From the sequence record PZ671982.1: a DNA stretch of 43,947 nucleotides; one strand, written 5' to 3'. This DNA is from a phage. The stretch's first letter is position 1. The number at the start of each line of letters is the position of its first letter. The notes under the pieces were generated by a model. That model searched no databases and was not told the DNA's origin. It saw only the letters and a list, made by a program, of their open reading frames with translations. Below, one piece after another: positions 3,491-38,926 of this stretch. Position numbers and translations under genes: made by a program.

Positions 3491-4577
3491 TCAATATATG
3501 GCGGATCGATTGATTCGCCGACACATCTTCACCCAGCGCCTGAGTAATGACCAGGCGCGAAGGGTGCTGTCCATGTGGGAGAAGTTCCGGCCCACTTTAC
3601 TGGGTAAGTTGACCGAGTTGCTTGATGGCAAATCGTCAATGAACAACAAGGCACTTTCCACCCTGCTAACGCAACTCGATAAGACAGTTAAAGCAGAATT
3701 GCGCACCGAGTTTAAGTTGTTGGCTGAAAGCCTTCAGGAGTTTGCCGACACCGAGGCCGATTATCTCACCGACACATTAACGGCAGCGATCCAGCCGGTG
3801 GTCGCCGTACCTGCGGTCGAGGTGGTGGGCGTAGTGACCGGTGCGCAGATCGCAGCGACGGCTATGAAAAACCCGTTCCAGGGTAATACGATGACGCAAT
3901 GGCCCGACTCACTTTCCGAGTGGACCAGGACGCAGATCGGGAATCAGGTGCGCGCTGGATTCATCCAGGGCAAGCCAACGATGGAAATTATAGCGGACGT
4001 GAGGCGCGCGCTCGGCGGTCGTAGTGCGCAAGCTATCTCAAGCGTTGTTAAGTCCGCAGTCAACCACTATGCAGCGACGGCCCGCGAACTAATGGTGAAA
4101 GCAAATGACGATATTCTCGAAGGTCGCCAGTGGTTATCTACATTGGACACGCATACTTCTCCCATGTGCCAGCTACGCGATCGCCTGTTTTATCCGGTTG
4201 ATGTTACTCCCAACACCAAAGGAAAGCGCGGCGGGAAAGTGGTGGCTGGATCACAATATGGCGCTGGTCCGGGCAAGTTGCATTATTGTTGCCGGTCGAC
4301 GGAGACGTGGAAGGTTAAAGGCATGGAAGATTGGCCCAGTGGTAAACGTCCGGCACTGAAGGCTGACGCGGGTCGATTGCTGAGTGAGCAGGTTGACGCG
4401 CAGACTGATTTCTTCTCATGGGTGCAGCGCCAGCCGCGCCATATCCTGGAAGAATTATATGGCGTGCAACGCGCCGACCAGATTATGCGCGGCGTGAAAG
4501 TGCCGAAGATGTTTACCGATTCTGGCGAACTGATGACTATTGCGAAGCTTAAAAACCGGGGGTTATGGCGTGATTAA
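3474..4577 (+). CDS. head morphogenesis protein (MuF / SPP1 gp7-like)
   Basis: 367 aa, overlaps portal stop; position and size typical of minor head protein after portal. Confidence 0.55.
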   Translation: MAKTINQYMADRLIRRHIFTQRLSNDQARRVLSMWEKFRPTLLGKLTELLDGKSSMNNKALSTLLTQLDKTVKAELRTEFKLLAESLQEFADTEADYLTDTLTAAIQPVVAVPAVEVVGVVTGAQIAATAMKNPFQGNTMTQWPDSLSEWTRTQIGNQVRAGFIQGKPTMEIIADVRRALGGRSAQAISSVVKSAVNHYAATARELMVKANDDILEGRQWLSTLDTHTSPMCQLRDRLFYPVDVTPNTKGKRGGKVVAGSQYGAGPGKLHYCCRSTETWKVKGMEDWPSGKRPALKADAGRLLSEQVDAQTDFFSWVQRQPRHILEELYGVQRADQIMRGVKVPKMFTDSGELMTIAKLKNRGLWRD

Positions 4578-4899
4578 ATATGCGGCTATTGGACTGGTTA
4601 TCGGTCTGGCGGTGGGATTCTGGCTAGGTGACTCCTATCGCGCTGGCGTAGTGGCGGAGGCGGCGCAAGAAGCGCAAGCCAAAGCCCAACGGCAGCAAAC
4701 TAAAGTTGTTGAGCGCTCCGTGCAGGCCGAACAGGCCCGCGACGTGGAATACCGGACTATCACGAAAGAGGTTGTAAAATATGTTACGCGCCCTAACCGC
4801 CCTGATTGTAGTTTTGATGCTGAGCGCGTGCGGATCAAGCAACGTGCCGTTGATGCCGCCAACGGAGTCGGCACTGCGACCGCCGTGCAAGTTCGATAA
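4570..4899 (+). CDS. i-spanin (Rz-like), probable GTG start
   Basis: N-terminal TMD IKYAAIGLVIGLAVGFWLG followed by Ala/Gln/Glu-rich coiled-coil-like region; GGGGG RBS 7 nt before GTG 4570; contains embedded o-spanin gene in another frame. Confidence 0.5.
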   Translation: MIKYAAIGLVIGLAVGFWLGDSYRAGVVAEAAQEAQAKAQRQQTKVVERSVQAEQARDVEYRTITKEVVKYVTRPNRPDCSFDAERVRIKQRAVDAANGVGTATAVQVR

Positions 4900-5011
4900 C
4901 CCGTCTGCGGACCCCGACGAGGATTTGATGATTGACGTGAAAAATATGGAATGCGGGGCTAAGCTAAGGGCGCAGGTGCTGGAGTTGCAGCAAATAATTA
5001 AGGGGCCGTAA
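4781..5011 (+). CDS. o-spanin (Rz1-like outer-membrane lipoprotein)
   Basis: 76 aa; signal peptide with lipobox LMLSAC, Pro-rich mature part; starts inside the Rz-like ORF in a different frame and extends past it (overlapped spanin architecture). Confidence 0.6.
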   Translation: MLRALTALIVVLMLSACGSSNVPLMPPTESALRPPCKFDNPSADPDEDLMIDVKNMECGAKLRAQVLELQQIIKGP

Positions 5012-5022
5012 TGGCCCCTTTT
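5002..5022 (+). terminator. rho-independent terminator (GGGGCC-gtaat-GGCCCC + T run)
   Basis: Perfect 6-bp GC stem, 5-nt loop, TTTT immediately 3'. Confidence 0.6.
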
Positions 5023-5077
5023 CGTCAGTCTCATTTTTGTGTCCTCGTTGTTGGGGCTTTCGCCCCGTTTGGTTTAG

Positions 5078-5485
5078 TTAAAGTGCTTCAAGAATCTCGT
5101 AAAACTTATTCGCCAGCGCCTGGCGACGTTCGAATTTCTCAGTGATAACCAATTCAGGGCGGTTAAATCTCTTTGCGTGTATGTTCCAATTGTGGATTTC
5201 CGTTTCCATTATTTTCTTACGGTTATAGTCGGTGTTTTTGATGCTAAATTCCTTGATAGCGTTGTTAAGAAAATCAGTCATATACTCAATGTCGGATATC
5301 GTAACTTCGAACGTGCGGGCTTCTATTCCGCTATTGGTGCGAAGTACGACGACGCCGCCGTGGTAGGTGTCGACTACCATATACTTGTAAGTCACCCCGT
5401 CCCACTCCGGATCGAAAGGGCGACCAAATACGTCGTCGGCTTTCCAGACTTTCAGGTACGGTGTTTCTTTGATTAATGTTGGCAT
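5078..5485 (-). CDS. hypothetical protein, antisense AT-rich island gene
   Basis: 135 aa from ATG 5485 (RBS AAGGAAA); uninterrupted ORF in visibly AT-richer DNA, opposite strand to flanking head genes; own promoter-like element upstream. Confidence 0.6.
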   Translation of the reverse strand: MPTLIKETPYLKVWKADDVFGRPFDPEWDGVTYKYMVVDTYHGGVVVLRTNSGIEARTFEVTISDIEYMTDFLNNAIKEFSIKNTDYNRKKIMETEIHNWNIHAKRFNRPELVITEKFERRQALANKFYEILEAL

Positions 5486-5520
5486 CTTGTTTTCCTTCAT
5501 ATCTCTGTTGGTGTGCAACC

Positions 5521-5550
5521 AATATAGCGCAACCAACTCCAGCGAGGCAA
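5521..5550 (-). promoter_or_regulatory. sigma70-like promoter for 5078..5485 (TTGCCT-18-TATATT) containing TTGGTTGCA motif
   Basis: On - strand: TTGCCT, 18-nt spacer, TATATT, then GGTTGCACACCAACA identical to the element upstream of 38927. Confidence 0.4.
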
Positions 5551-5557
5551 GCGAATT

Positions 5558-5585
5558 TTGCGATTATTTTTATCGCTGATAATAT
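5558..5585 (+). promoter_or_regulatory. sigma70-like promoter for scaffold/capsid operon (TTGCGA-16-TAATAT)
   Basis: Hexamers read directly; back-to-back with the - strand promoter. Confidence 0.4.
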
Positions 5586-5639
5586 TAAGGCGTGAAGTCA
5601 AGCGGGTGGCCCGCTTTGCCACAATCCCAGGGGGATAGC

Positions 5640-6344
5640 ATGAAACTTACTAAAGCAGAATATGACGCGTTGCCGGAAGGTATGAAGGCGCTTTTTGTTG
5701 CCGATGGTGACGGGTATAAATCAACGTTCATGACCGCCGAAGAAGTGCAGGCGGAGATCAAGGGTCTGAAAGACAACAACGCGAAGCTGGTGAGCGAGAA
5801 GAAAGCAGAAGCCGAACGCCGCGCCGAAGCTGAGCGCCTTGCGAAAGAGAAAGAGGAAGCCGCCGCGCGCAAAAATGGCGACCTAGAAGCGATCGATAAG
5901 TCCTGGAAAGATAAGTTCGCAAAACATGAAGCGGACACATCGGGGAAAATCGAAGCCTACCGCAAGCAGATTCATGACCTAACCATCGGCAGCGCTGCCA
6001 AAGACCTGGCGTCGAAGCTGTTCGGTAAGAATGCCGGCATCATGCAGCGTCACGTTATGGACCGCCTGGCGCTGGAAGACGGCGAAGACGGCAGCCTGAA
6101 GGTGCGAGTATTAAAGGATGGCAAACCGTCCGCTCTGACGATGGACGAACTGGAAAAAGAGTTCCGTAGTAACGCAGATTTCGCATCTGTCCTGGCTGGC
6201 ACGCCAGCCGGTGGTGCGCCGAGCAAACCGACACAGGTCGTCGAAGATGTGAAGTCGAAAATCACTATGGGCCATAGCTTCGGTATCACTGACTTGACGA
6301 AACAGGCAGGGGATATCATTGCTAAAATGGGCGACGACGAGTAA
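5640..6344 (+). CDS. scaffolding protein (putative)
   Basis: Start at ATG 5640 (RBS GGGGGA); highly charged K/E/A-rich coiled-coil-like sequence immediately upstream of major capsid gene. Confidence 0.6.
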   Translation: MKLTKAEYDALPEGMKALFVADGDGYKSTFMTAEEVQAEIKGLKDNNAKLVSEKKAEAERRAEAERLAKEKEEAAARKNGDLEAIDKSWKDKFAKHEADTSGKIEAYRKQIHDLTIGSAAKDLASKLFGKNAGIMQRHVMDRLALEDGEDGSLKVRVLKDGKPSALTMDELEKEFRSNADFASVLAGTPAGGAPSKPTQVVEDVKSKITMGHSFGITDLTKQAGDIIAKMGDDE

Positions 6345-24081: not shown

Positions 24082-24591
24082 TTATTTAAGTGCGCCAGTC
24101 ACCAGTGTTTTTTCCATGTTACGGAAATCTTCCTGCGTCATGCAGATTTTCGATCCGTCTTCGCCAGTGAGCACGACCATAGGCTGGACGTCCTGATCTA
24201 CGATGCCAAAATTAGCGGCTGTAACCGTTTTACCGGGGGTAAATGCGCCGCCTGTTTTGACGGGCCAACCTTTGAGGCTATCGAATTGTGCTGCCGTTGT
24301 ATCGATCTGAATCTCGTCATGCCCGGTCATGTAAGACTCGCCCAGCAGGGCGGCATACGCCACCAGATCCACGATGTTATCTTCCTGGTGCTTACGGTGC
24401 TGGCGCACCAGCTTCAGGCAGATCAGGAAGGTCCAGGCTTCTTGCTCGGTAAGGTCGCGACCGGTAAGCGCGTTAAACACGGCAGCAATTTGTTTAGCGC
24501 TGCGTTCTTCTTTCGCGTTGTCATAGCCGTTTTCTTTCCCGCGCTGTTCCATAGTGGTGGCGGCGTTTTTGCAGTATTCGAATGCTTTCAC
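24082..24591 (-). CDS. hypothetical protein
   Basis: ORF extends to 24669 but that N-terminus is built from the TTGGTTGCA promoter palindrome; more likely start GTG 24591 (RBS AAGGG) or ATG 24552. Confidence 0.45.
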   Translation of the reverse strand: MKAFEYCKNAATTMEQRGKENGYDNAKEERSAKQIAAVFNALTGRDLTEQEAWTFLICLKLVRQHRKHQEDNIVDLVAYAALLGESYMTGHDEIQIDTTAAQFDSLKGWPVKTGGAFTPGKTVTAANFGIVDQDVQPMVVLTGEDGSKICMTQEDFRNMEKTLVTGALK

Positions 24592-24639
24592 AGTATTACC
24601 CTTTTTTAGCGAGGGGGCGGTATTGCCCCCGACACGTTT

Positions 24640-24669
24640 ACTATAGTGCAACCAACCTATTGGTTGCAA
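24640..24669 (-). promoter_or_regulatory. sigma70-like promoter (TTGCAA-18-TATAGT) inside a perfect TGCAACCAA/TTGGTTGCA palindrome
   Basis: Read on - strand; followed by 5' UTR hairpin GGGGGC-ggtatt-GCCCCC (24611..24634). Confidence 0.35.
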
Positions 24670-25127
24670 GTGAATTTTGCAACGTTTATCGCGTAAATTT
24701 TCGGGACCAAATCACCACACGCCCGGCGAATTGCCGCGATGTTCTTCTCGCAATCTTCAATGATGACCAGTTCCGACACGTCCGCATAGCAGACCATTTT
24801 GAACACGGCGCACGCCTTAAACTCTGGCGGCGGGGTGTCGTCCAGCATGTGGCGCATGAATAACCGACCTACGGGGAAGACTTCCAGTTGTTCGGCGGTG
24901 GTGCCCCAACATTCTCGCTGCCGGTTGGTTAGATACGCGATCTCGAAGCCTTGCTCTTTATACATGCGCAGTAGCGGCAGCATATCCATGTTAAGGTCTT
25001 CGCGGACGTGCGCCTTGTGCCACTTCGCCCAGAAGGTGGATTTAGTTTTTATACCCGGCACCAGGTCGGCACGCGCATCGCTTGAACCATTAATAACGCC
25101 ATCCAAATCGCAAATCAGTAATTTCAT
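24657..25127 (-). CDS. HAD-superfamily phosphatase-like protein
   Basis: N-terminal LICDLDGV (DxDG[TV] motif I), RBS GAGGA. Confidence 0.55.
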   Translation of the reverse strand: MKLLICDLDGVINGSSDARADLVPGIKTKSTFWAKWHKAHVREDLNMDMLPLLRMYKEQGFEIAYLTNRQRECWGTTAEQLEVFPVGRLFMRHMLDDTPPPEFKACAVFKMVCYADVSELVIIEDCEKNIAAIRRACGDLVPKIYAINVAKFTCNQ

Positions 25128-25348
25128 TTCAATTCCTCAATCAAATTTTCACGAACAATACGGGCGGAAAACGTGTCACACACAAGATGGCATTTGGCAG
25201 CCATTACAAGCCCGCCAGTAAGGTCCATGCCAAGCAATTGCTCCGGGCGGCTGCAACGCCGCACTTTGTTCTCCCTCGGGTTAATTTGGTAGCGTTTAAC
25301 AATTTCGTCCACGACGCGCGGACTGCGATCAACGATTAAGATATTCAT
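25124..25348 (-). CDS. hypothetical protein (74 aa)
   Basis: ORF with ATG 25348; overlaps neighbours in operon fashion. Confidence 0.4.
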   Translation of the reverse strand: MNILIVDRSPRVVDEIVKRYQINPRENKVRRCSRPEQLLGMDLTGGLVMAAKCHLVCDTFSARIVRENLIEELK

Positions 25349-25814
25349 GTAGCTCACTCTCGCTCATTATTTCAATTTGTGCGCTGCCGGTGGGTGGCGC
25401 TTCGTCAAAGATTATCAATTGCTGGCACTTGTTATTGCTCGGCCCGACTTCACCGGTCACAGCATGTATAAATCGGATACGCCAGTCCAGAAGAATTATC
25501 AGGTTTGCAGTCTTCCGGGCCAGCTTCGCCCACTTCGTCGACGTGTCCTGATTCAGTAGCATGACGGTCCGGCGTCCGTGCGCTGCGCACTCGACCCACG
25601 GCAGCGGATCGGAATACGGCGGGTTGCACCACTTCCACCCTTCCAACTCTGACCAGTCCGCATCGAGCGCGCTGTGCTCCGCCGTGAAGTAACGCGGTAG
25701 CAGGTGGTTGGCATCGCTCGCCGCCATGTCATAACGGAATCGGTACTTCCGGCGCAGCGGTTTAAATAAAGCTGGCGGCGTGCGCCAGCTATCTTTTTGC
25801 TCATTCTTCTGCAT
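25329..25814 (-). CDS. DNA N6-adenine methyltransferase (phage Dam-type)
   Basis: 161 aa with WRTPPALF, DMAASDANH and catalytic NPPY motifs characteristic of small phage Dam enzymes. Confidence 0.75.
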   Translation of the reverse strand: MQKNEQKDSWRTPPALFKPLRRKYRFRYDMAASDANHLLPRYFTAEHSALDADWSELEGWKWCNPPYSDPLPWVECAAHGRRTVMLLNQDTSTKWAKLARKTANLIILLDWRIRFIHAVTGEVGPSNNKCQQLIIFDEAPPTGSAQIEIMSESELHEYLNR

Positions 25815-26259
25815 GATCTGGATCTATCGCGTACAGGGCAATTTTCTTATTACTGTTTAGAACGCGTTGCACGCGCTTTAATTCCTCGGTGCCGAGCGGT
25901 CGGCAGTCGGAGTAGTAAGACCCGTTCCCCCGCCACGCAACCAGCACCAGGTCTTTCCGGTCAATCTTAGACTGGCGGCCCTTCGGACGCACGTACTCCT
26001 CGGCCCGTTTGCAATGCTCACGCAGACCATCGGCAGTGATGCGGTTTAGTGCAACGCTGGTGGTGTATCCGGTGCGCTGCATAATCCCCATCAATTCGAA
26101 AAGCAGTTCGAAGCGCTCCTCTAGCTCCTGGCGCACTTTCTTCTCGCCCTCATATAGCGCCTGGTTGGTGTCCGCCAACGCGTTCGCACGTTCGGCTTGT
26201 TCGCGGGCTTCGAGGCATTGCGCGGCCCAGTAATTTTTCTCTTCTTGTAAAATTTTCAT
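25801..26259 (-). CDS. hypothetical protein with N-terminal coiled coil
   Basis: 152 aa, RBS GGAGA; strong promoter directly upstream. Confidence 0.5.
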   Translation of the reverse strand: MKILQEEKNYWAAQCLEAREQAERANALADTNQALYEGEKKVRQELEERFELLFELMGIMQRTGYTTSVALNRITADGLREHCKRAEEYVRPKGRQSKIDRKDLVLVAWRGNGSYYSDCRPLGTEELKRVQRVLNSNKKIALYAIDPDHAEE

Positions 26260-26306
26260 CGTGTTGTCTCCGGGTATTAAAAAGGGCGTCCAAACCGGAC
26301 ACCCTC

Positions 26307-26335
26307 AATATAATGCAACCAATATGATTATGCAA
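26307..26335 (-). promoter_or_regulatory. sigma70-like promoter (TTGCAT-17-TATATT) built from tandem ATTGGTTGCAT motifs
   Basis: Read on - strand, about 40 nt upstream of ATG 26259. Confidence 0.5.
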
Positions 26336-26340
26336 CCAAT

Positions 26341-26664
26341 TTACGAATAAAAATTTGGGTCGCGTGCAACGTCTACCAGATACAGGTTACTAATGCGGTT
26401 GCCGTAATGGCCTGGCGTGCGCTGACGGCACACAACGGCATAGCCTGGAGGGATTGTATTGCCAGTCTCAATAATCCACGCCACGCGTGCGCCAGACAGC
26501 GTCTTGCCGTTGCATTCGATACGAGTACCGCCATCGGCAGTATTGAGGTTGCCAATCTTGCAGCCGGTGGACTTTAGGCGGATAACGCCTGTTTTGCTGT
26601 CGTAGGAAAAAAGCTGATTGGTCATTGCCACTGAAAAATCGATGGCTTCGAATGTAGTGTTCAT
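26341..26664 (-). CDS. HNH_3/NUMOD4-like small protein (degenerate HNH endonuclease-like)
   Basis: 107 aa; pattern YDSKTG...IPPGYAV...GNRISNLYLV resembles N-terminal and DNR..NL parts of HNH_3 proteins but canonical His residues not evident. Confidence 0.35.
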   Translation of the reverse strand: MNTTFEAIDFSVAMTNQLFSYDSKTGVIRLKSTGCKIGNLNTADGGTRIECNGKTLSGARVAWIIETGNTIPPGYAVVCRQRTPGHYGNRISNLYLVDVARDPNFYS

Positions 26665-27371
26665 TCTAAATTTTCCTCGTTAACCGCTATCGCGAAGCCG
26701 CGCGGGGTGAGCGACCTGATTAATTTGGTGCGGGCAGATTTGCCTCCGAGGCGACTATACTGCTTCGAGTAACCTTTTTCAACGAAAACAGGTTTCTTCT
26801 CGGGCATACGGAAGCCGTTTCCAGTCCATAAGCAGGTCAGCTTCGGATATGAATCGCGGGCGTTGATGTATTCAGGGAAGAGCGGGTGTACGTCATCCTC
26901 TGGCAGATATCCGCCATACTCCCACGGGTCAAACGAGTGGTCCGGCTTACGCCACTGGGTGGAAAGCACGCTGCGCGGATTCTCAATCATATATGGCACT
27001 TCGAAGAAATCACCCAGGTAAGCTGCGATCTTCGCGGTGCGCACCGCCTTAAGCTGGAAGGCTGGGTCGCGGGCGCGTTTGCGCGGGAAAGCTGGCGCAC
27101 CGCTAACCGCCAGATCCGTACACGGCGGGAATGCGTAAATGATATCCGGCGTGCCGAAATCGCCATTCATCGCGCGATCCACGAAGTCCAGGTCTATAAA
27201 CTCATTACGATAGCGAATGCCGCGACCATAGATCCGGTAGTCCAGGTAAGACCCGTGATCGGCTTCGGAGTAGTTGAAGCAATAACACTTATGCCCCATC
27301 TCGGCAGCACGCTCAATCATCAAGCCGCTGCCGTCAAACAATGACCAGATTGTCATTTTAGCAATAGTCAT
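26661..27371 (-). CDS. DNA (cytosine-5)-methyltransferase-like protein (compact)
   Basis: Motif I-like SLFDGSG, motif IV-like FPPC, motif VI-like IENP; only 236 aa, so target-recognition region is short or absent. Confidence 0.5.
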   Translation of the reverse strand: MTIAKMTIWSLFDGSGLMIERAAEMGHKCYCFNYSEADHGSYLDYRIYGRGIRYRNEFIDLDFVDRAMNGDFGTPDIIYAFPPCTDLAVSGAPAFPRKRARDPAFQLKAVRTAKIAAYLGDFFEVPYMIENPRSVLSTQWRKPDHSFDPWEYGGYLPEDDVHPLFPEYINARDSYPKLTCLWTGNGFRMPEKKPVFVEKGYSKQYSRLGGKSARTKLIRSLTPRGFAIAVNEENLE

Positions 27372-28792
27372 TTGCGCGCCTTTTTAGCTTTCATGTATTC
27401 CATTAGATCGTCCTGGATATCGCGCTTACTGTCGCGACGCTCGGCGACCAGTTCGTCCAGTGTGCCGCGCGCCTGGATAATGTAGACGAATACCGGACGA
27501 GGGTGTCCGGCTTGCATCTGGCGAACTGGCCCGATACGCTCCACGATCTGCGCAAAGTGCTCATAGTTCCAGGTGTCTGAGAAGATAGCAAGGTGGTGTC
27601 CACCATCCTGCAAGTTAAGGCCGTGACCCGCCGATGCCGGGTGTGCGAACATGATGGGGATCTCGCCCCTGTTCCACGCTTCCATATCCTTATTTCCTTG
27701 CTTTCCCTTACCCATCGCGACGCCGTGCGGGAATTTCTTCTTAAGACGTGCCAAGTCATGCTTGTACTGGTACGCGACGAGCAACGGTGCGCCGTTCAAC
27801 TCCTCCACGATACTTTCCAGCGCGTCCAGTTTAGCGTCGTGAATTTTCACCCATTCGTCGGTGCGCTCGCCGTCTTCGTCGACTTTATACACGGCCCCAG
27901 AAGCAAGCTGAAGGCACTTAATAGTCTTCGATGCCGCGTTCGCCGCTTCCACTGTTCCGCTTTCCAGTTCGGCAAATAGCTCGCTTTCAAACTGGTCGTA
28001 AATCTTGCGGGCTTTCTTCGGCAGATCCACAACAACCGGCGTATATATTGGCTTGTCACATCCGAAGTATTCAGCCGCGTCAACGGTGAGGGATACATCA
28101 GACAGGCGTTGTTGTATTTCTTTCTCGGAGTTCTTTAGCGGGGCGTGCTGCATAGTGAAGCTGCCAGGCTTAACAGGCTTGCTAATAAACCAGCGATCCG
28201 TAAATGCCGTATAGCTACTGCCGAGGCGTTCGCCACCATCGACAAACCACGTCTGACCCCATAAGTCTTTCAGCCCGTTGGGTGCGGGTGTGCCGGTAAG
28301 GTTAATCCAGCGCTTGACGTGCTTATGTGCGATCGCCGCCAGTGCGCGTGCGCGCTTACTACCCTGCTTGCTACGATAGCCTTTCAGCTTAGTCGATTCA
28401 TCGGCAACAACGACCGTAAAGGGCCACGCATCGCCGTAATAGTCTACCAGCCACTCAACCACATCGTAGTTAACACAAACCACGTTAGCGTCGCTCTCAA
28501 GCGCTGCGATACGGTCCTTCTCCGGCCCAGTGCCGTCTACGACCAGCAGGGATGAGAACCGCCATTTCTCCTGCTCCGGGGGCCAGGTGCCAGATGCAAC
28601 GCGCAGCGGGGCCAGCACCAGTACGCGGTCCTCCTGGTTGGACAGGATGCCAGTCTGGAACATTTTGTTTAACGCCCACATGGTCGCGCCAGTTTTACCC
28701 GACCCCATTGTCGCCCAAATATTACAACGCTTATGCTTGAGGATGAACGCGGTTATCAACTTCTGATATTCGCGACGTCTGAATCTTGCCAT
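27368..28792 (-). CDS. SNF2-family helicase
   Basis: Walker A GSGKTG, DEST box, SNF2-type LTGTPAPN motif; 474 aa. Confidence 0.7.
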   Translation of the reverse strand: MARFRRREYQKLITAFILKHKRCNIWATMGSGKTGATMWALNKMFQTGILSNQEDRVLVLAPLRVASGTWPPEQEKWRFSSLLVVDGTGPEKDRIAALESDANVVCVNYDVVEWLVDYYGDAWPFTVVVADESTKLKGYRSKQGSKRARALAAIAHKHVKRWINLTGTPAPNGLKDLWGQTWFVDGGERLGSSYTAFTDRWFISKPVKPGSFTMQHAPLKNSEKEIQQRLSDVSLTVDAAEYFGCDKPIYTPVVVDLPKKARKIYDQFESELFAELESGTVEAANAASKTIKCLQLASGAVYKVDEDGERTDEWVKIHDAKLDALESIVEELNGAPLLVAYQYKHDLARLKKKFPHGVAMGKGKQGNKDMEAWNRGEIPIMFAHPASAGHGLNLQDGGHHLAIFSDTWNYEHFAQIVERIGPVRQMQAGHPRPVFVYIIQARGTLDELVAERRDSKRDIQDDLMEYMKAKKARK

Positions 28793-38710: not shown

Positions 38711-38869
38711 GCATAAAATCCTGGATTGCATAATACACGGCAGCACATTGGAAATCGCGGTCGTCGCTGAACTAGGCAACCAATGCGAGTTGCAGAACGG
38801 TTGGTGAAAATGCAGTTTGCAGTCACAGCAGATAGCGATCGACTTTTTCATGCGCGTGATTAATATTGG

Positions 38870-38898
38870 TTGCATCCATGCCCGCACCCTGCTATATT
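38870..38898 (+). promoter_or_regulatory. sigma70-like promoter (TTGCAT-17-TATATT) from tandem ATATTGGTTGCA motifs
   Basis: About 30 nt upstream of RBS AAGAGGA and ATG 38927. Confidence 0.5.
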
Positions 38899-38926
38899 GG
38901 TTGCACACCAACAAGAGGACTGAACG

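Follow-up and report, generated by a model that had tools for sequence, protein, structure and literature searches.

The closest described relative of the short cytosine methyltransferase considered here is the Dcm protein of K42 (Drexlerviridae, Hanrivervirus), which is the phage trigger of the retron Ec86/Eco1 (bioRxiv 10.1101/2023.08.16.553469). K42 Dcm raised the 5-methylcytosine (5mC) content of the DNA of msDNA, as detected by LC-MS; in four out of four escape mutants dcm itself or the region upstream of it was affected, and Dcm was encoded by 34 of the 35 Ec86-sensitive phages of that study (bioRxiv 10.1101/2023.08.16.553469). The C82A/E128A/K175A/K176A mutant of the enzyme was inactive (bioRxiv 10.1101/2023.08.16.553469). 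CCWGG was assumed to be its target, as it is for the Dcm enzyme of E. coli, and the experiments used the dcm+ strain MG1655, where msDNA from empty-vector cells was low in 5mC (bioRxiv 10.1101/2023.08.16.553469). Such a low level in a dcm+ host is hard to square with plain CCWGG specificity. The K42 genome is ~95% identical to that of KarlJaspers (Bas06), whose Dcm is used below for comparison.

The window analyzed here is a stretch of phage DNA of 43,947 nucleotides (PZ671982.1). It shares 91–93% DNA identity with the Dhillonvirus genomes SSL-2009a and Henu5_1 and, judged by this likeness, its source belongs to Dhillonvirus, a familiar group of phages that infect E. coli. Its replication row runs on the minus strand in the order PolA, VRR-NUC, SNF2 helicase, Dcm-like protein, HNH-like protein, orf152, Dam-like protein, Ksap1 homologue and HAD phosphatase. 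The methylase gene row is kept in 148 phage records, each covering at least 80% of a 5.4-kb query, and because of this conservation it is not a chance pattern. The same genes are common to ~160 sequenced relatives and already annotated there; the region is the usual DNA-methylation segment within the Dhillonvirus replication row, ordinary and already known. The earlier note had placed three open reading frames (ORFs) within 25329-27371, and all three are found there, on the minus strand, at 25329-25814, 26341-26664 and 26661-27371. We consider it probable that together they form a modification segment with active Dcm-like and Dam-type enzymes and a domesticated HNH_3 derivative. The practical value of this reading is modest, as annotation of the genes exists for ~160 genomes of Dhillonvirus and the short C5 enzyme has a characterized homologue; two points of interest are the target of the very widespread short Dcm-like family and a catalytically stripped HNH derivative kept under selection beside C5-methylase genes in two phage genera.

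The short Dcm-like cytosine methyltransferase

The gene at 26661..27371 (minus strand) encodes a protein of 236 aa. Its upstream neighbor is a gene for a SNF2-family DNA helicase of 474 aa (27368..28792, minus strand; PF00176 1e-10, phrog_62 4.7e-157), and the helicase stop and the methyltransferase start share the sequence ATGA at the junction. A second ATG at 27356 would give a protein of 231 aa, the length annotated in most relatives; a 15-nt insertion at the start of the window gene adds the residues MTIAK, and in both versions ATGA still joins the start to the helicase stop. The family is large, with 2873 relatives of mostly 225–250 aa, and in the collection searched it occurs in 1512 phage records from many unrelated lineages.

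Both methyltransferase identities proposed in the earlier note hold. For the cytosine enzyme they rest on the motifs FDGSG (residues 12-16), PPC (82-84) and ENP (130-132). In motif I, which binds SAM, F12, G14, S15 and G16 are invariant among 30 homologues, as are the whole of motif IV (P82-P83-C84, with the catalytic Cys) and of motif VI (E130-N131-P132). The note had named the absence of the Cys-containing motif as evidence against a C5 assignment, and it is present. K177 is also present, and motif IX/X reads R219-S-L-T-P-R-G...A-V. C84 and E130 align with Cys82 and Glu128 of K42 Dcm, both of which lie within the inactivating quadruple mutant, and Lys177 with K42 Lys175; K42 Lys176 is replaced by Leu178. 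The KarlJaspers protein is, like that of the window, 236 aa long, and the two are 53% identical over 234 of 236 aa (E 6e-86). Both the K42/KarlJaspers Dcm and the window protein are DNMT3A-like and belong to phrog_757 (7.4e-84 for the window protein), but KarlJaspers is a phage of another family, with other neighbors around the gene and without the HNH-like ORF.

The protein gave no match to Pfam or NCBIfam, and none to PF00145 even at E<=10, although 15 of 30 close homologues match this model (best 1.3e-6); in the PDB, searches by sequence and by profile yielded only a spurious kinase (E ~0.5-0.9). The assignment as a C5-methyltransferase therefore rests on motifs, fold and characterized homologue. 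The predicted structure adopts the C5-methyltransferase fold, with DNMT3A/B as the best structural matches. Canonical enzymes such as M.HhaI, M.HaeIII and E. coli Dcm belong to PF00145, a model which the window protein does not reach, and the latter is ~90–100 aa shorter than M.HhaI (327 aa). It also differs from the canonical enzymes and from DNMT3A/B in a conserved, family-specific insert between motif VI and Lys177. The unusual compactness pointed out in the earlier note is borne out, as is its suspicion about target recognition: no discrete target-recognition domain lies between motifs VIII and IX, and the stretch from the strand at 179-184 to motif IX (219-225) comprises only ~30–35 residues, at lower pLDDT. 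Since so little stands in its place, the protein resembles the catalytic domain of DNMT3. The missing domain bears on size and specificity, not on catalytic classification. The protein would thus be an autonomous SAM-dependent cytosine-C5 DNA methyltransferase of phrog_757, with Cys84 as the probable nucleophile assisted by Glu130. By homology to K42 Dcm it is expected to form 5mC, and triggering of Ec86/Eco1 is a prediction from the same homologue. No measured sequence specificity for the short Dcm-like family was found in the literature searched.

The HNH-like protein

Directly 3' of the cytosine methyltransferase gene lies an ORF of 107 aa (26341..26664, minus strand), whose start overlaps the stop of the former as ATGA; its translation is taken to be coupled to that of the Dcm-like gene. 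The "HNH_3/NUMOD4-like" label of the earlier note is right in its first half: descent from HNH_3 is indicated by phrog_99 ("HNH endonuclease," 1.2e-16), but the match to the Pfam model HNH_3 is sub-threshold (PF13392; 13.7 bits, E 0.05, under the cutoff of 24.8). The second half is not borne out, as the window protein gave no match to NUMOD4. An I-HmuI NUMOD-like match appears only for the Eiauvirus homologue and is sub-threshold (E 0.0019). The protein can be aligned with Poky gp49 and with I-HmuI-type HNH_3 (PF13392) enzymes over an N-terminal beta-rich region with Y-x-x-x-T-G and a helix region with G-N-R-x-x-N-L. The loss of catalytic residues that the note had perceived is clear from the alignment with Poky gp49, a bona fide HNH_3 enzyme, where Val78-Cys79 stand in place of the catalytic Asp-His. 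The pair is likewise lost in 10 of 10 family clusters and in gp31 of Eiauvirus. In the family alignment His86, R90 and N93 are invariant, and N89 is kept by all Dhillonvirus-type members. In comparison with HNH_3 homing endonucleases, the protein also has no C-terminal DNA-binding extension, and its ORF, instead of being sporadic, is present throughout the genus and kept by purifying selection. AlphaFold, run with a five-sequence alignment, gave no reliable structure (pLDDT 41.6).

The note took this ORF for a decayed homing endonuclease that had brought in one of the methyltransferase genes, and a functionless remnant of this kind would agree with the clear HNH_3 descent, the vanished Asp-His, a frameshift near the 3' end of the copy in SSL-2009a, and the insertion of true HNH genes beside the Dcm family elsewhere (e.g., Poky gp49). 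We nonetheless regard it as highly improbable. The ORF occurs in 163 phage records, near full length in 162 of them; its 107 codons are fixed in essentially all Dhillonviruses, and it was always found 3' of the Dcm-like gene in the records compared, with no sign of the sporadic distribution of homing genes. Its dN/dS of 0.05–0.09, at dS of up to 1.9, denotes a constraint equal to that of the neighboring genes. The ORF is also intact, without Asp-His, in divergent metagenomic relatives (58–62% identity, same neighbors) and in Eiauvirus (39% identity); a pseudogene would not last so. Nor is import of the C5 gene by homing favored, as Drexlerviridae carry members of this short Dcm family but no HNH-like ORF with them. 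As far as sequence can tell, the ORF is no homing endonuclease in decay but a domesticated HNH_3 derivative, apparently nuclease-dead. Because it is maintained by selection, the protein should do something, most likely DNA binding; it would not be needed for Dcm activity, since family members work alone. In E. coli, vsr overlaps dcm; here, the HNH-like gene begins within the 3' end of its Dcm-like neighbor. A protein that is still a nuclease, or a nicking or mismatch-directed enzyme, with a non-canonical active site and working with the C5-methylase, in a position like that of vsr beside dcm, could be read from this overlap, from His86 and Asn93 in every member including that of Eiauvirus (and Asn89 in Dhillonvirus-type members), and from the Eiauvirus copy, which neighbors a C5-methyltransferase of 330 aa. 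This enzyme and the short Dcm family are non-orthologous C5-methyltransferase families; their comparison by hhalign was uninformative (probability 0.6%). Nevertheless, such a nuclease seems unlikely to us: neither the canonical general base nor the metal ligand is left, members of the Dcm family act on their own and in Drexlerviridae have no such ORF beside them, common descent of the whole replication row accounts equally well for the Eiauvirus synteny, and no structural model was obtained for the protein. With a similarly small chance, the Asp-His-less derivative may be a partner devoted to the cytosine methylation of the phage, either a DNA-binding tuner of the site or timing of the Dcm-like enzyme or a handler of 5mC consequences (T:G mismatches); this would explain both its coupling to the Dcm-like gene in Dhillonvirus and its C5-methyltransferase neighbor in Eiauvirus.

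The Dam-type enzyme and the role of the methylation

The second methyltransferase gene (25329..25814, minus strand) encodes a small phage Dam-type N6-adenine DNA methyltransferase of 161 aa, in which DMAASDANH occupies residues 29-37 and NPPY residues 64-67. The match to PF05869 (E 4.4e-36, 124.5 bits) lies well above the cutoff of 28.1, and that to phrog_111 is 3.8e-55. The protein shares with the PF05869 phage Dam family (TIGR01712, phage_N6A_met) the HMM match, the NPPY motif and a length of ~160–180 aa; it scores below the equivalog cutoff of TIGR01712 (88.2 bits against 97.05). An orthologue lies at the equivalent position in Eiauvirus. The target is presumably GATC, as we assume from other PF05869 members. 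A kinship with Hia5 and Hin1523, two adenine methylases without sequence specificity, was considered and dropped; those enzymes are described as carrying DPPY/FxGxG and a target-recognition region of ~90 residues, an architecture unlike that of the 161-aa protein, and the paper describing them gave no link to PF05869. The dN/dS of the Dam-type gene is 0.07–0.32, and purifying selection acts on all three genes of the segment (C5, HNH-like and Dam). Its 3' end overlaps by 20 nt the 5' region of a gene for a 74-aa Ksap1 homologue (25124..25348, minus strand; phrog_10685 7.9e-43). The ORF between the Dam and phosphatase genes of SECphi18 is syntenic with it, at 57% identity; the Ksap1 protein has been described (PMC11564622).

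Both methylases would be made during replication, as we infer, and act on progeny phage DNA, where the benefit would most likely be protection from methylation-sensitive restriction enzymes with overlapping sites. Dual self-methylation as anti-restriction is plausible. It stays putative because of resistance data from the BASEL study, in which Dhillonvirus is described as resisting type I and II restriction-modification (RM) less well than Queuovirinae, and methyltransferase genes of Drexlerviridae were not simply linked to restriction resistance. The genome contains 173 GATC sites (observed/expected 0.84) and 148 CCWGG sites (0.92); with counts near expectation, neither is strongly avoided, and no clue to specificity follows. 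There is also a cost, since retrons sense phage methylases: the Dcm family triggers Ec86/Eco1 (bioRxiv 10.1101/2023.08.16.553469), and phage Dam enzymes trigger the retrons Sen2 and Eco9. Both methylases are therefore relevant to host range.

Two alternatives concern what the enzymes modify and to what end. The earlier note had suggested a different substrate for the short C5 protein, which would then make no 5mC in phage DNA but act on tRNA (as DNMT2 does) or on single-stranded DNA only, or would transfer another group, e.g., carboxymethyl from Cx-SAM. We judge this very unlikely, and the note's suggestion is not borne out: the 5mC raised by K42 Dcm was in DNA, on msDNA, and its near-identical counterpart in KarlJaspers shares 53% identity with the protein of the window. 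DNMT3A/B, the best matches of the predicted structure, are DNA enzymes, which likewise points to DNA; the gene sits within a DNA replication row, and no CmoA-like synthase gene was detected among the neighbors scanned. Methylation by the two enzymes could also serve mainly other ends, such as the timing of replication or packaging, the avoidance of host mismatch repair or the evasion of methylation-reading defenses. The BASEL data just mentioned speak for such purposes, as does the fact that an E. coli K-12 host supplies Dam and Dcm itself. To our knowledge, however, none of the RM systems tested in BASEL recognizes a site that would be shielded by methylation of the Dam or Dcm type, which weakens the argument drawn from them, and the spread of the short Dcm family over unrelated phage lineages is the pattern typical of anti-restriction cargo. 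Other ends than anti-restriction are rather improbable as the main purpose.

orf152 and the intergenic spacer

The earlier note set the HNH-like ORF between the two methyltransferases, which is correct, but as the only one there, which is not: it missed an accessory ORF of 152 aa (25801..26259, minus strand; phrog_10530 2.6e-97). The end of this ORF overlaps the start of the Dam-type gene by 14 nt. It is absent from HK578 and is 32–99% identical elsewhere. The label "DNA ligase," which reaches it through phrog_10530, was set aside, as searches of Pfam, NCBIfam and the PDB gave no match to back it.

Between orf152 and the HNH-like ORF lies an intergenic spacer (26260..26340, minus strand). A scan for consensus terminators listed none in this spacer; by reading of the sequence and its centroid fold, a terminator-like element with a 10-bp hairpin and U5 stands at ~26279-26306, directly ahead of the ribosome-binding site and start of orf152, and in phage WF5505 a terminator is annotated at the equivalent place. 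The spacer also holds two copies of ATTGGTTGCA, at 26331-26340 and 26314-26323, a motif which is enriched, with 14 copies found against 3.3 expected.

Gene organization and relatives

Every gene within 23.4-29.4 kb of the window is carried on the minus strand. ATGA overlaps join the genes for a SNF2-type helicase (27368-28792), a 236-aa C5 methyltransferase-like (Dcm-like) protein (26661-27371), starting at an ATG that overlaps the stop of the helicase, and a 107-aa HNH-like protein (26341-26664), whose ATG overlaps the Dcm-like stop. After an 81-nt spacer, a second chain of overlapping genes comprises a 152-aa ORF (orf152, 25801-26259), a 161-aa Dam-type ORF (25329-25814, 14-nt overlap with orf152), a 74-aa Ksap1 homologue (25124-25348, 20-nt overlap with the Dam-type ORF) and a HAD-type phosphatase (24657-25127). 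Within the spacer, ATTGGTTGCA is present twice, along with a 10-bp hairpin that has U5 behind it; a terminator has been annotated at the matching position in phage WF5505. The earlier note, which described two methyltransferases flanking a degenerate HNH-like ORF, was right in all coordinates, lengths and motifs, but omitted orf152 between both methyltransferase genes.

The 5.4 kb around the feature share 91-93% identity with Dhillonvirus genomes (e.g., SSL-2009a, Henu5_1, EK99P-1, YD-2008.s), and at least 80% of this region is covered in 148 phage records. These already label the genes as helicase, (putative) C5 cytosine methyltransferase, (putative) HNH endonuclease and N6-adenine methyltransferase, with the fourth ORF as hypothetical protein or "DNA ligase." The C5 enzyme of phage NJ01 is 100% identical to the window protein, as is the HNH-like product in UAE_MI-01 and others. 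The observation is real; the gene arrangement is ordinary, genus-wide and already annotated. The slot between the HNH-like and Dam genes is variable among relatives: it is empty in HK578, holds an extra 80-aa ORF in SSL-2009a, and orf152 identity ranges from 32% to 99%.

The cytosine and adenine methylases

The 236-aa protein has no hit among Pfam or NCBIfam models, nor among PDB sequences even with a 30-sequence profile. Nonetheless, its family is large (2873 proteins in a first search; 1960 representatives at 50% identity), occurring in 1512 phage records from Drexlerviridae, Dhillonvirus, rV5-like myoviruses, and Klebsiella, Salmonella and Campylobacter phages. Half of 30 diverse members reach PF00145, weakly (best 1.3e-6), and all 30 share F12, G14, S15 and G16 (motif I), P82-P83-C84 (motif IV, with the catalytic Cys), E130-N131-P132 (motif VI), K177 and R219-S-L-x-P-R-G (motif IX/X region). 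The best structural matches were DNMT3B (14.3) and DNMT3A (12.7), followed by a C5-carboxymethyltransferase (8yf3, 12.5), M.HhaI (11.5) and M.HaeIII (10.9). Since only ~30-35 residues, of lower confidence, separate strand 179-184 from motif IX, the protein lacks a discrete target-recognition domain, as had been suspected. The earlier note would have counted a missing catalytic Cys motif as a refutation; the motif is there, without exception in the 30 members.

An experimental relative is the Dcm of KarlJaspers (Bas06), a Drexlerviridae phage. Escape mutants of its strain K42 were isolated against retron Ec86, and all four affected either a 711-bp dcm gene or sequence immediately upstream of it (bioRxiv 10.1101/2023.08.16.553469). 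Expressed alone, K42 Dcm was toxic only with Ec86 present and raised 5mC on msDNA (by LC-MS), while activity was lost in a C82A/E128A/K175A/K176A mutant; the authors modelled the enzyme on DNMT3A (bioRxiv 10.1101/2023.08.16.553469). Its CCWGG target is an assumption made by analogy with E. coli Dcm; the assays used a dcm+ MG1655 host, yet control msDNA carried little 5mC (bioRxiv 10.1101/2023.08.16.553469). Our literature searches found no paper giving a measured target motif for the short Dcm family. The KarlJaspers protein (236 aa) shares 53% identity with the window protein along the full length (E 6e-86), and its Cys82, Glu128 and Lys175 align with Cys84, Glu130 and Lys177. By this homology, the window protein belongs with autonomous DNA 5mC methylases whose family has experimental support; the enzyme that the earlier note called unusually short is one of a known family with an experimentally supported member.

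The 161-aa protein is, by its profile matches, a normal small phage adenine methylase (PF05869, E 4.4e-36, 124.5 bits, cutoff 28.1; phrog_111, 3.8e-55), with NPPY at residues 64-67. It misses the TIGR01712 equivalog cutoff (88.2 vs 97.05 bits), and no solved structure was found among its relatives.

At the start of the Dcm-like gene (27356-27371, minus strand), a 15-nt insertion relative to SSL-2009a adds MTIAK ahead of MTIW without disturbing the ATGA junction with the helicase gene; the inserted stretch resembles an imperfectly duplicated gene start.

The HNH-like ORF

The 107-aa product matches phrog_99, "HNH endonuclease" (1.2e-16), and misses the Pfam HNH_3 cutoff (13.7 vs 24.8 bits). Aligned with Poky gp49, a genuine HNH_3 protein (PF13392, 9.6e-15), it carries Val78-Cys79 in place of the catalytic Asp-His and Ala59 in place of the upstream conserved His, retaining the G-N-R-x-x-N-L part; the earlier remark that obvious catalytic histidines are lacking is thus borne out. 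The predicted structure, with a pLDDT of 41.6, is unreliable.

The further proposal of a decayed homing endonuclease is contradicted by conservation and selection. The ORF occurs in 163 phage records (162 near full length, 157 at 80-100% identity), and among five Dhillonviruses its pairwise dN/dS ranges from 0.05 to 0.09 (dS reaching 1.9), against 0.01-0.06 for the Dcm-like gene, 0.01-0.04 for the helicase and 0.07-0.32 for Dam. The family comprises only 10 clusters in a 5.8-billion-protein database, the divergent ones (58-62% identity) lying in an identical order of helicase, Dcm-like gene, HNH-like gene, ORF and Dam. Edwardsiella phage eiAU (Eiauvirus) encodes a 151-aa homologue (39% identity), also without Asp-His; its gene is flanked by that of the helicase and by one for a non-orthologous 330-aa PF00145 methylase, after which comes a PF05869 Dam. 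Together, these data show that the ORF has not recently decayed. Nor is it an obligate Dcm partner, because Drexlerviridae carry the short Dcm without it and K42 Dcm works alone. Judging from its conservation and alignment, the 107-aa ORF is a long-domesticated HNH derivative, inactive by canonical criteria; since His86 is invariant in the family, it may conceivably use a non-canonical active site.

In eiAU (3860-5882), the order helicase - HNH-like - C5-MTase - Dam is preserved with a C5-MTase of a different, full-length family (phrog_363), which suggests that the cytosine methylase was replaced in situ. The SSL-2009a copy of the HNH-like ORF (4069-4404) has a frameshifted C-terminus (111 aa, two tblastn pieces); the record is an older one and may contain a sequencing error, or else this is a rare case of a truly disrupted gene.

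Possible roles and neighboring genes

In the straightforward reading, both enzymes would methylate progeny phage DNA, with protection from methylation-sensitive restriction, the usual rationale for phage methylases, as the putative benefit. The RM systems tested in BASEL are not known to be blocked by Dam- or Dcm-type methylation. The window genome has 173 GATC and 148 CCWGG potential sites, close to expectation. In BASEL, Dhillonvirus is less resistant than Queuovirinae to type I and II RM, and in Drexlerviridae methylase genes and resistance show no simple link. The documented cost of phage methylases is retron sensing: Dcm triggers Ec86/Eco1 (bioRxiv 10.1101/2023.08.16.553469), and phage Dam triggers retrons Sen2 and Eco9.

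Several neighboring names are doubtful. The "DNA ligase" label of orf152, inherited from phrog_10530 and RefSeq annotation, finds zero support in Pfam, NCBIfam or PDB and looks unfounded; missing in HK578 and highly variable elsewhere, orf152 is an accessory gene occupying a slot whose content differs among relatives. "Phosphofructokinase," the PHROGs label in related families of the DUF6378 protein (24082-24669, minus strand), and "polynucleotide kinase," given to the HAD-family phosphatase, look loosely transferred. Ksap1 is a small protein bound by KpAvs2 to detect infection (PMC11564622); the window allele, between Dam and the phosphatase, shares only 57% identity with its syntenic counterpart in SECphi18, whereas flanking genes reach 96-98%, a divergence that fits the reported natural escape variation.

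The ATTGGTTGCA 10-mer (26314-26340, 24647-24668, 38865-38905, 5514, 21606, 35549) has eight exact copies, and 14 with at most one mismatch vs 3.3 expected. It is often paired and in intergenic gaps; one pair forms a palindrome overlapping a promoter-like TTGCAA-N18-TATAGT, and the element may act as a promoter or operator of the phage.
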